Below are positions 53,438 through 55,609 of a stretch of 64,000 bases of DNA, piece after piece; the first letter of the stretch is position 1; each line of letters opens with the position of its first letter. The stretch is from positions 1 through 64,000 of the IMG/VR virus record IMGVR_UViG_3300046003_007336, one strand, 5' to 3'. Source of the stretch: a virus. The notes beneath the pieces were generated by a model. That model was not told the DNA's origin. It saw only the letters and a program-made list of their open reading frames with translations, and searched no databases. The translations under genes and the position numbers were made by a program.

Positions 53438-53468
53438 TTGACGCCAAATCGTCCTCGAAGTATAAATA
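53438..53468 (+). promoter_or_regulatory. Overlapping sigma70 and T4-type late promoter of the Ala/Pro operon
   Basis: TTGACG-N17-TATAAA, whose -10 box is also a perfect TATAAATA. Confidence 0.8.
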
Positions 53469-53475
53469 GGACGTT

Positions 53476-53583
53476 ATGTTGATCCTGTTCACCCTCGCTG
53501 CTCTGACCGCAGCCGCTGCCATCGCAGCGGGACAGGCCCCCGTGCGCTTCGCACCAGCCCCGGCTAGCCGACCGCGACCCTAA
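53476..53583 (+). CDS. Ala/Pro-rich leader peptide (35 aa)
   Basis: MLILFTLAALTAAAAIAAGQAPVRFAPAPASRPRP; 12 Ala (all four codons) and 5 Pro; starts 7 nt after the promoter. Confidence 0.55.
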   Translation: MLILFTLAALTAAAAIAAGQAPVRFAPAPASRPRP

Positions 53584-53666
53584 AGGGTAGCGGTATATAA
53601 GCAGCCAGGATGGTGATCGGCGCGATGCCGATACGTCCAGCAAAACAATCTAGGAAACGTGGCCTT

Positions 53667-53742
53667 GGGGTCATAGCTCAGTTGGTAGAGCGTCTGCTTT
53701 GCAAGCAGAATGTCGTCGGTTCGACTCCGTCTGACTCCACCA
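53667..53742 (+). tRNA. tRNA-Ala(UGC)
   Basis: Full cloverleaf, G3:U70, A73, encoded CCA. Confidence 0.95.
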
Positions 53743-53767
53743 CGTCCTAGTATTCACGATGTGTCAT

Positions 53768-53844
53768 CGGGGTATAGCTCAGTCTGGTAGAGCACTCGCT
53801 TTGGGAGCGAGGGGTCAAGAGTTCGAATCCCTTTACCCCGACCA
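53768..53844 (+). tRNA. tRNA-Pro(UGG)
   Basis: Cloverleaf, C1:G72, encoded CCA. Confidence 0.95.
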
Positions 53845-53874
53845 CACGTGAATCCTTCAAGGTATCTGCTCAGT

Positions 53875-53948
53875 CGGGGTGTAGCGCAGTCTGGTAGCGC
53901 ACTGGTCTCGGAGTCCAGGGGTCGTAGGTTCGAGTCCTACCGTCCCGA
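53875..53948 (+). tRNA. tRNA-Pro(CGG), CCA not encoded
   Basis: Cloverleaf with CT-CGG-AG loop; ends ...CCCG-A-CT. Confidence 0.85.
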
Positions 53949-53969
53949 CTGAACAGATAGTTTGATCAT

Positions 53970-54026
53970 CGGGGGAGGCCGTGAGAGGCCAGTGCACTGA
54001 GGTGAAAATCCTCCACCCCCCGTCCA
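53970..54026 (+). ncRNA. 57-nt mini tRNA-like element without an anticodon arm
   Basis: CGGGGG/CCCCCG stem, GGCC-GTGAGA-GGCC arm, GAGG-TGAAAAT-CCTC T-like arm, 3' TCCA. Confidence 0.5.
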
Positions 54027-54035
54027 AACCATCTT

Positions 54036-54111
54036 GGGGTCTTAGCTCATCTGGTAGAGCGCAACACTGGCAGTGTTGAGGTGGCGGGTTCGAGTCCCGC
54101 AGATTCCACCA
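54036..54111 (+). tRNA. tRNA-Ala(GGC)
   Basis: Cloverleaf, G3:U70, CCA. Confidence 0.95.
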
Positions 54112-54115
54112 TTCA

Positions 54116-54215
54116 TGGGCGTGTCGGCGACAACGGGGGCTACCCCGCTAGGCCACCTGCGGTCGGCCCGAAAGGGGGCTTCAGGGAGAGGTGCAAGGCC
54201 TCTCGCGTTCCACCA
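54116..54215 (+). ncRNA. Non-canonical tRNA-like RNA with Ala identity (100 nt)
   Basis: TGGGCGT/GCGTTCC-A-CCA acceptor (G3:U70); GAGAGG-TGCAAGG-CCTCTC T-like arm; extra internal hairpins. Confidence 0.6.
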
Positions 54216-54248
54216 ACCCCGGCGCAATCCCGCGCCACGAGAACCGAT

Positions 54249-54419
54249 ATGGACAAGAAGACGGAGAAGAAAAAGAAGAAACTGCTAGATCGCATCGCCG
54301 AACTGGAAACCGAACTCCGGCAGTCGCTGGGGAAGAAGGATAGTCGCACCGTCGAGATCGACGTGCCGTCCCAGATGCGGAAGATCGCCGATTTGCAGGC
54401 ACAAGTATCGCGGATGTAA
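54249..54419 (+). CDS. Small basic coiled-coil protein inside the tRNA cluster
   Basis: MDKKTEKKKKKLLDRIAELETELRQSLGKK... Confidence 0.65.
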   Translation: MDKKTEKKKKKLLDRIAELETELRQSLGKKDSRTVEIDVPSQMRKIADLQAQVSRM

Positions 54420-54425
54420 ATCCAC

Positions 54426-54500
54426 GGGGATATAGCTTAACGGGTAAAGCGCGCCCCTCGCACGGGCAAGTCTGCGGTTCGATTCCGCATATCTCCACCA
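54426..54500 (+). tRNA. tRNA-Ala(CGC)
   Basis: Cloverleaf, CT-CGC-AC loop, G3:U70, CCA. Confidence 0.9.
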
Positions 54501-54505
54501 ACAAC

Positions 54506-54577
54506 GGGCGGCACAGCCAGTGCAATGGGAATAAGCTTTCCCAGAAGAGTGGGAGTGGCTCTCCCCTCCGTCCACCA
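54506..54577 (+). ncRNA. Degenerate tRNA-like RNA with Ala identity (72 nt)
   Basis: GGGCGG/CCGTCC-A-CCA (G3:U70); TGGGAA-TAAGCT-TTCCCA and GGGAG-TGGCT-CTCCC arms. Confidence 0.55.
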
Positions 54578-54582
54578 AACAG

Positions 54583-54661
54583 GGGCCAGAGAACCACAGG
54601 CGTGGTTCGACGGTGAAGGGGGTCGCTCCTCCATGGGGTTCGATGCCCCACTGGTCCACCA
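54583..54661 (+). ncRNA. Non-canonical tRNA-like RNA with Ala identity (79 nt)
   Basis: GGGCCAG/CTGGTCC-A-CCA (G3:U70); 7-bp D-like arm with 4-nt loop; TGGGG-TTCGATG-CCCCA T arm; no canonical anticodon loop. Confidence 0.65.
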
Positions 54662-54690
54662 TTTCAACACCAACATCCTGGGAGGATGCT

Positions 54691-55544
54691 ATGACACTGC
54701 GGGACGCCTAACAGAGACCTACCGGACTTTCTGCCTCGAACGCGGCATTGAGTTTCATGAGGTCAAGAGTGTGAGACCACACGACAACACGACCTTGTTC
54801 TGCCCTGCGGGGATGCAGCAGTTCAAGGAAGACTACCGGGGACATCGTCGCGGGACCGTATCCAATATTCAGTCCTGCATCCGGCTCAATGATCTGGATG
54901 AAATCGGCGACCAAACCCACCACCTAACCTTCGACATGATCGGGCTGTTTTCGTTCCGTGACATGAGCGTTCTGGAGACCATCGATTTCTGGTTCGAATT
55001 CCTCTCCAAGATTGGCATCAAGCCCGACGTGGTCACCATCCACCCGGACAAGATGCTGGACTGGCGAGAACTCTATCGGGGCCGCGACGTAGAAATACGG
55101 CCGGACCCGGAGTGCACGTGGTCGGACGGCGGCATGGGTGGATACTGCACGGAGTTCTACGTCAGAGGCGTGGAGATCGGCAACATCGTGAATACCAACG
55201 GAGATTCAATCGACGTCGGTTTCGGGATGGAACGCCTTCTCTGGGTTCTCGGCGAAGAAACGCCACCGCGTGGGGACATCCTGGTCCGCACCATCGACCG
55301 CATCGTTGAGTCGGGATACCGGCCCAGCGGCAAGCAGCAGGGTCATGTGCTCCGGCGCCTGATCGGGTTGCTGACAGACGAGGGCAGCCATCCCAACCAC
55401 CCCGAGGTCGTCAGCGAGACGTCCAGACGGGTGAAGCTCTCGGAACGCTTCGACCGCCTTTGGCCGAAGCATCAAGACAAGTCGCCAGAGTGGTGGCTGG
55501 ACACCCACGGTATCGTGGTGTCTGAAATGGTCCTCAGGGTGTAG
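54691..55544 (+). CDS. alaS: Minimal alanyl-tRNA synthetase (aminoacylation core only); SD-linked ATG 54691 is out of frame with the body
   Basis: TTLFCPAGMQQFK, QSCIRLNDLDEIG...HHLTFDMIGLFSF, IDVGFGMERL, GYRPSGKQQGHVLRRL and WLDTHG match the AlaRS core motifs in order; ~280 aa, no editing or C-Ala domain. Confidence 0.85.
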
Positions 55545-55609
55545 CTCAGTGGCAGAGCGCACGGTCGGGAATCGTGAGGCCGGGATTTCAAAATTCCCCA
55601 CCCTGACCA
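55535..55609 (+). tRNA. tRNA-Pro(GGG), overlapping the alaS stop
   Basis: CAGGGTG/CACCCTG-A-CCA; loop TC-GGG-AA (C33 instead of U33). Confidence 0.85.

Follow-up and report, generated by a model that had tools for sequence, protein, structure and literature searches.

The stretch of DNA analysed here, a window of 64,000 nucleotides (positions 1 to 64,000 of the IMG/VR record IMGVR_UViG_3300046003_007336), is the start of a 198.5-kb phage contig with a completeness of about 44%. Positions 53,438 to 55,609 hold a block of alanine and proline tRNA genes, which is headed by a short open reading frame (ORF) rich in the same two amino acids and also contains tRNA-like RNAs, here called mimics, as well as the gene of a miniature alanyl-tRNA synthetase (mini-AlaRS). 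An initial annotation had described a self-contained module that senses, supplies and charges Ala and Pro tRNAs. The six tRNAs it named (tRNA-Ala TGC, GGC and CGC; tRNA-Pro TGG, CGG and GGG) are all found, no further tRNA is called in the block, and its Ala/Pro-rich leader of 35 codons, 17 of them for Ala or Pro, is confirmed. The features are, in order:

53438..53468, plus strand: promoter-like site, a sigma70-type -35/-10 pair (TTGACG-17-TATAAA, 53438-53466) overlapping a T4-late-like TATAAATA; kept before the orthologous leader
53476..53583, plus strand: leader ORF of 35 codons; among 34 codons, 12 are for Ala (each of the four Ala codons is used) and 5 for Pro
53571..53594, plus strand: hairpin spanning the final leader codons and the stop, without a U-tract; kept in the related contigs L296 and L297; candidate switch element
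53608..53638, plus strand: second hairpin, followed by an A/C-rich stretch without a U-tract; not kept in relatives
53667..53742, plus strand: tRNA-Ala(UGC), from tRNA calls
53768..53844, plus strand: tRNA-Pro(UGG), from tRNA calls
53875..53949, plus strand: tRNA-Pro(CGG), from tRNA calls; A37 instead of G37, CCA not encoded
53970..54026, plus strand: mimic 1, 57 nucleotides (nt), an acceptor with two hairpins; C1:G72, G3:C70, U73
54036..54111, plus strand: tRNA-Ala(GGC), from tRNA calls
54117..54215, plus strand: mimic 2, 99 nt; G3:U70, A73, CCA; one acceptor-stem bulge, extra arms
54249..54419, plus strand: ORF of 56 amino acids, basic helical protein, seen solely inside tRNA blocks
54426..54500, plus strand: tRNA-Ala(CGC), from tRNA calls
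54506..54577, plus strand: mimic 3, a 72-nt cloverleaf; G3:U70, A73, CCA; anticodon-like loop of 6 or 8 nt, odd T arm
54583..54661, plus strand: mimic 4, 79 nt; G3:U70, A73, CCA; lacks an anticodon arm; member of a conserved RNA family
54681..54711, plus strand: Shine-Dalgarno sequence (54681-54685) and a six-codon frame from ATG 54691, ending GAC GCC TAA (stop 54709-54711)
54702-54708, plus strand: predicted -1 shift site, Asp-Ala-stop; same sequence in an independent study
54691..55544, plus strand: mini-AlaRS, predicted at 284 amino acids after a -1 shift; PF01411, fold, active site
55535..55609, plus strand: tRNA-Pro(GGG), from tRNA calls; overlaps the AlaRS stop by 10 nt; C33, A37

The capsid protein of the contig shares 81.5% of its residues with its counterpart in Sinorhizobium phage Phosso and 67% with the one in Atu_ph07. 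The contig is likely an Atu_ph07/Phosso-like jumbo phage of an alphaproteobacterial host, a host that is also suggested by its two-piece transfer-messenger RNA (tmRNA; contig positions 76109-76601). The same DNA is present in multiple lake-water studies, and contigs from independent studies reproduce both the mimics and the broken start of the AlaRS gene with zero differences, which rules out an assembly error behind either. Among the data sets listed as containing this DNA, none is an RNA data set, which has no bearing on expression.

Among the contig's 1,062 short ORFs, the leader is the sole one with at least 50% Ala plus Pro, an enrichment with a binomial P of 8e-7. With the 56-amino-acid ORF as a search handle, orthologous Ala/Pro-only blocks were found that carry the same tRNA species in shuffled order; their leaders (L296-L300) have diverged in sequence, yet the counts of 12 Ala and 5 Pro are unchanged, and promoter and stop hairpin have been kept. 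In the leader of the window, this hairpin folds except when a modelled ribosome gets as far as the last codons. The strict promoter motif has just two plus-strand occurrences, before the Ala/Pro leader and before the leader of a Gly/Glu tRNA block; the default promoter scan did not list the site at 53438-53466. The phage encodes a late sigma factor, and the promoter-like site, a candidate only, may be used both early and late.

Leaders of this kind are not confined to alanine and proline. The Gly/Glu and the Leu tRNA blocks of the contig each have their own codon-matched leader, and another nine come from G001 and G002, relatives by capsid (e.g., His, Asn, Ile/Thr/Val, Gln/Leu and Tyr/Pro/Leu/Met/Cys). 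With the Ala/Pro leader these make 12, from three phages, and their fit to their own blocks exceeds that in all 200,000 permutations (p<5e-6); 11 of the 12 match their own block best, and every one contains each amino acid of its tRNA block. Further matched leaders occur in G013 (six), in G014 (one) and in L033 and L055. The idea of a dedicated Ala/Pro system holds only in part: the leader-plus-block design serves many amino acids in the clade. Nor is the module self-contained, since the same contig carries a tmRNA and tRNAs for Gly/Glu, Met, Leu and Gln. The 56-amino-acid ORF in the middle of the block is a further component. As side observations, the Gly/Glu and Leu blocks with their matched leaders (contig 65645-66302 and 80400-81169) are, like the Ala/Pro block, without intrinsic terminators, the Gly/Glu leader resembles a leader of G013, and contig L033 repeats its own sequence in inverted orientation, which probably arose in assembly.

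The truncated AlaRS of the initial annotation is a real mini-AlaRS, but it has no usable in-frame start, which had been missed: the ATG behind the Shine-Dalgarno sequence opens the six-codon frame, and the synthetase frame would apparently be entered only by a shift. In a sample of 97 AlaRS loci, an in-frame ATG is absent from 22, of which 20 carry GGACGC and 2 AAACGC; each of the other 75 has an in-frame ATG and neither site. The initiating frame reads Asp-Ala or Asn-Ala in 25 loci, which use all four Ala codons and include cultured Rhizobium tropici and R. leguminosarum plasmids; a stop codon does not in every case adjoin the GAC-GCN site. This conserved site, atypical as it is, would fit a slip by -1 of the tRNA in the P site while the Ala codon stands empty, which is the route that we regard as probable. 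An 11-nt translational hop was dropped, because its landing codon is not conserved whereas the -1 site is. After the shift, only one of 279 residues is Ala, as compared to 10.8% genome-wide (P about 5e-13) and a family mean of 3.2%; we propose that the enzyme is nearly free of Ala because it must be made while Ala-tRNA is scarce.

A chance deletion in a pseudogene, with the mimics as decaying tRNA-Ala copies, would also produce a broken start, and low folding z-scores (-0.7 to -1.8) and the lack of homologues for mimics 1-3 would be in keeping with it. This explanation is largely refuted, to the point of having hardly any probability left, by the occurrence of the same break in 25 distinct loci in phages and Rhizobium, by the intact reading frame and active site of the AlaRS, and by compensatory changes in mimic 4.

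Histidine appears to provide an independent instance of the same logic. Of 33 mini-HisRS loci, 16 are interrupted at a His codon by a +1 break, as is the gene in the cultured phage Phosso. G013 combines a Ser/His/Tyr/Cys leader and the matching tRNAs with the same 56-amino-acid ORF and with a mini-HisRS whose gene is interrupted at a His codon; the G013 copy counted has no His residue after the break. In Phosso, a phage of S. meliloti (PV764938.1, about 4050-4686; L354:1400-2064), the N-terminus of the mini-HisRS lies in another frame that ends at the +1 His-codon site, and the deposited start (4096) appears to miss the real N-terminus. The Ser/His/Tyr/Cys block holds other oddities, namely a 92-amino-acid EF-Ts-like fragment (PF00889; L293:4162-4440) and an irregular tRNA-like RNA (L293:4440-4560).

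With respect to the enzyme itself, the mini-AlaRS matches PF01411, the class II AlaRS fold, with an E of 2e-18; its predicted structure has a predicted local distance difference test score (pLDDT) of 92, and the top Foldseek matches are all AlaRS, with template-modelling (TM) scores of 0.75-0.78. R67, W146, E157, N167, D177, G179 and G181 are invariant in 75 mini-AlaRS sequences and R184 is present in 74; from the alignment, we take these to be the motif 2 and motif 3 arginines and the residues of the alanine pocket. D273 (67 of 75) resembles, by eye and not from a computed alignment, the Asp motif that reads G3:U70. Neither an editing nor a C-Ala domain is present, as the ORF ends at 55544, and near homologues have 241-330 amino acids (fused forms were not searched). 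The family comprises at least 875 clusters, in phages and Rhizobium plasmids; one plasmid copy (L265:2092-3848) adjoins VapBC and Xre-RES toxin-antitoxin pairs. The enzyme likely alanylates RNAs with G3:U70.

Potential substrates other than tRNA-Ala are the mimics. Four CCA-ending tRNA-like RNAs had been claimed, of which three have alanine identity and the fourth, the 57-nt mimic 1, has not, because it carries C1:G72, G3:C70 and U73. Mimics 2-4 share G1:C72, G2:C71, G3:U70, A73 and CCA behind a T-like arm, and the presence of three such alanine-type 3' ends within 561 nt of spacer has a chance P of about 3e-5. Mimic 4, with a 7/5 acceptor-T branch, has homologues in L294-L300 that keep all 17 pairs, three of them through double changes (these affect the acceptor stem and the T stem, plus one in the first hairpin), and in which G3:U70 is invariant. 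Viral contigs that were searched by pattern for mimic 4 gave nothing, these homologues being reached only via the 56-amino-acid ORF; more distant versions are found in G013, between two tRNA-Ala genes, and in G006. G003 has a 100-nt tRNA-like RNA with Ala identity (L250:2269-2368) whose middle is unrelated to mimics 1-4. A 52-nt RNA shaped like mimic 1, an acceptor plus two hairpins with a Pro-like C1:G72, is seen in relatives (L294:1141-1192). Mimics 2-4 are probably charged with alanine but cannot decode; they are an independent accessory of the block.

What charged mimics might do can be thought of in several ways. The mini-AlaRS could charge them for passing alanine to a non-ribosomal acceptor, and mimics 3 and 4 do lie directly upstream of its gene; the mini-AlaRS of Tupanvirus charges bare acceptor stems (PMC10036535), and the phage protein Mom uses charged tRNA for DNA modification (PMC13219725). 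Such a dedicated pair is nevertheless highly improbable. Relatives of mimic 4 occur without an AlaRS nearby, and the complete genomes with Ala-type mimics (G013, G006, G003) gave no mini-AlaRS match; the other AlaRS loci scanned have no mimic alongside, bar one degenerate tRNA-Ala, and no candidate acceptor or transferase was seen beside the block.

Alternatively, the mimics could be mini-tmRNAs devoid of a tag, whose binding to SmpB would either block ribosome rescue by the host or take its place, with everything else in the block working as in the model given below. Alanine identity without an anticodon is a signature of tmRNA, G3:U70, A73, CCA and a T arm being found in mimics 2-4 only, and the UUCGA stretch of mimic 4 may be likened to the tmRNA D-loop. 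The tag-less tmRNA form of mycobacteriophage DS6A inhibits tmRNA in E. coli (PMC11915505). Against this, the UUCGA stretch is paired within a conserved hairpin, none of the mimics matches the Rfam tmRNA covariance models or has a tag frame, the three RNAs are unlike in shape, and the phage already encodes a full two-piece tmRNA, which makes the idea distinctly improbable. Our leading guess, still a tentative one, is a third role, suggested for example by Cas12a3, which binds the acceptor stem, T arm and CCA of tRNA (PMC12851939): the mimics may be decoys for proteins that attack or bind the acceptor end.

Synthetase, tRNAs and mimics do not have to travel together. No tRNA lies within 3 kb of 77 of 99 mini-AlaRS loci; where tRNAs are nearby, tRNA-Ala is among them in 17 of 22 cases and Pro hardly ever, such that the expected synteny of a mini-AlaRS with Ala/Pro tRNAs holds as a recurrent tRNA-Ala link but not for Pro. 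The orthologous Ala/Pro blocks, in turn, have no synthetase within the flanks examined, and no mini-AlaRS was found in Phosso. Since relatives keep the block, the leader and one mimic without an AlaRS nearby, synthetase and mimics are not an obligate pair. From the loci without tRNA and the blocks without synthetase it follows that the locus combines three mobile parts, a leader-gated block, a self-gated synthetase and the mimics, which among the loci examined are united only here.

The block is real and under selection; what it does we infer throughout. In the model that we favour, with a probability of about 0.7, the block acts through feedback to replenish charged tRNA and is one of several operons with which this jumbo phage would renew its tRNA supply under such control. 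A host ribosome on the leader would stall at Ala or Pro codons when charged tRNA is short, and more downstream RNA would be made, a response that the anatomy of the leader renders very probable. The transcript would then supply the three tRNA-Ala and three tRNA-Pro species whose genes it carries. Ribosomes starting at ATG 54691 would normally terminate after six codons; at an empty Ala codon, peptidyl-tRNA-Asp would slip back by one base, the overlapping Arg codon would be read and the AlaRS completed, a gate for which the conservation of the site argues strongly. The AlaRS, in what is again a likely step, would charge G3:U70 RNAs and so close the loop. The trigger is likely a loss of tRNA during infection, through a host tRNA-targeting defence or starvation, and an anti-defence purpose is plausible. 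The claim that the block senses, supplies and charges is supported, and strengthened by the frameshift and the nearly Ala-free enzyme; that of a dedicated Ala/Pro design is right only in part. A more ambitious version, a closed two-tier circuit in which a leader switch without terminator and an Ala-codon frameshift both read charged tRNA-Ala and the enzyme loads anticodon-less RNAs, which would serve as codon-independent alanine carriers with the ribosome or defence proteins as their target, thereby sustaining translation after host tRNA destruction, is not described in any virus and seems to us unlikely.

Several observations weigh against the feedback model. The permutation test took in 12 leaders and left out the leaderless tRNA clusters of G001, G003 and Phosso, and before the tRNA arrays of Phosso and G003 no leader was recognised. 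Leaders of G001, G002 and G013 are mostly followed by hairpin-plus-U intrinsic terminators, but none follows the three leaders of this phage or the orthologous Ala/Pro leader (L296), no plus-strand terminator was found inside 53438-55609, and folding of the leader region gave no clear terminator/antiterminator pair. The GGAC site is no textbook slippery sequence, the shift sites of the AlaRS loci have no conserved 3' stimulator, and reinitiation may offer another route to the AlaRS. As for the enzyme, its tRNA-binding domain is strongly reduced, and in the alignment Gly takes the place of the Asn by which the E. coli enzyme recognises G3:U70, with Asn in 43 of 75 homologues. Lastly, a homologue search found none for mimics 1-3, and the covariation of mimic 4 comes essentially from two lineages and is reached by 12 of 500 shuffles.

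Some of these points would suit a constitutive supplement, in which the tRNAs are always made, for codon use or replacement, the leader is the relic of an attenuator and the frameshift runs at a fixed low level: no terminator follows the leader, Phosso and G003 have large tRNA arrays without recognisable leaders, and 75 of 97 AlaRS loci start in the ordinary way. However, leader composition, promoter and stop hairpin have been kept despite divergence, the shift site retains an Ala codon of any kind, the enzyme is depleted of Ala and the histidine case runs parallel, and we consider such a supplement quite unlikely.

Leader-peptide attenuators (trpL, hisL, thrL, ilvL, pheM) control amino-acid operons and pheST. 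The phage leader resembles these and other upstream ORFs (uORFs) with attenuator function in being a promoter-proximal short ORF rich in the sensed codons, with RNA structure over its stop; intrinsic terminators of the classical type follow leaders in related phages. It differs in its phage locus, in controlling tRNA genes, in its multivalent match to the block and in the missing intrinsic terminator. It would thus work like an attenuator that departs from the rule in one respect, because the leaders of this phage and its near relatives lack intrinsic terminators. For the same reason, the stall would most likely block Rho-dependent termination, either by covering the C-rich leader (46 C vs 28 G, which is suggestive only) or by letting the stop hairpin form. 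Attenuators controlled by uORFs and acting through Rho include tnaC, mgtL, speFL and cruR (PMC12360218), and we give even odds to a read-out of the leader like that of tnaC or mgtL. Open-access text searches found no paper on leader-peptide control of tRNA genes.

The autoregulatory frameshifts of prfB (release factor 2) and antizyme are reviewed in PMC5009743, which, in the part that concerns us here, treats the natural use of hungry-codon shifting as unsettled. The mini-AlaRS resembles prfB in its short conserved first frame, in a protein that needs the shift and in a product that would relieve the sensed condition; unlike prfB, the shift is -1 at GAC-GCN instead of +1 at CUU-UGA, the slow codon is a sense codon for Ala and the product is a synthetase. 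No case of a synthetase governed by a hungry-codon frameshift was found in open-access text searches. The Tupanvirus mini-AlaRS has 461 amino acids (PMC10036535) and is likewise viral, devoid of editing and C-Ala domains and possibly content with the acceptor stem alone; the enzyme described here, known from its sequence, has 284, is internally condensed and belongs to a separate family with a predicted frameshift gate. The mimics share irregular shape and alanine identity with the tag-less tmRNA of DS6A (PMC11915505) and with G3:U70 allo-tRNAs (PMC5389517). They differ from tmRNA in lacking an Rfam tmRNA match and from allo-tRNAs, which are 8/4 or 9/3 and decode (PMC5389517), in that mimic 4 is 7/5 without an anticodon arm and mimic 3 has a 6- or 8-nt loop. 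Phage tRNAs counter tRNA-targeting defences and huge phages encode synthetases, according to the relevant parts of PMC10264068 and PMC7162821, which make no mention of a sensing of charged tRNA; PMC11555353 and PMC11464382 are, by title, on the same defence-countering tRNAs. The genes of the block are likely replacements too, but their supply appears conditional and amino-acid specific. Prototypes are thus known for each mechanism (attenuation, prfB, tag-less tmRNA), and their application to tRNA genes and synthetases was not found in the open-access literature.

The remaining parts of the block deserve brief mention. Position 37 of bacterial tRNA-Pro is normally a methylated G, and the A37 of tRNA-Pro(CGG) and tRNA-Pro(GGG) could mean independence of TrmD or evasion of a nuclease; tRNA-Pro(GGG) (55535-55609) has a weak T stem besides its C33. 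A role as tRNAs that mistranslate Pro codons as Ala was rejected, since G3:U70 is present in none of the tRNA-Pro. A relaxed ARAGORN run was too noisy for use. The 56-amino-acid protein has no Pfam or PHROG match and no match above 0.82 in the ESM Atlas, and BLAST of the whole block against annotated phages matched tRNAs only. Endonuclease-like genes lie in or just after Ala/Pro blocks (L296:3828-4616; window 55655-56083) and may, as insertions, be the source of the shuffled tRNA order. Blocks of relatives also hold a structured RNA, conserved and about 240 nt long, which comes after the 56-amino-acid ORF (L294:660-900), and a 180-nt tRNA-like RNA with a large insert (L295:960-1140). Elsewhere, the window encodes a HerA-like ATPase (58322-59761) and a 720-amino-acid protein with a weak prokaryotic RING match (61074-63236), and the contig a full-length class I synthetase of 914 amino acids (88410-91151, minus strand; Pfam I/L/M/V family) that looks like IleRS, as well as a long structured non-coding stretch after a lone tRNA-Met (about 74200-74900).

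The role of phage tRNAs has been debated for 50 years, codon bias being set against the replacement of tRNA that has been destroyed. Tying a block of tRNA genes to sensors for the charged forms of the tRNAs it encodes speaks for the replacement view and opens it to testing. If true, the turning on of a synthetase through slippage at the codon of its own amino acid (Ala at -1, His at +1) is a new use of hungry-codon frameshifting, and an AlaRS of 284 residues would be far smaller than the 461-residue Tupanvirus enzyme. The leaders would, moreover, list the tRNAs that run short in infected cells and thus serve as a pointer to unknown host defences.

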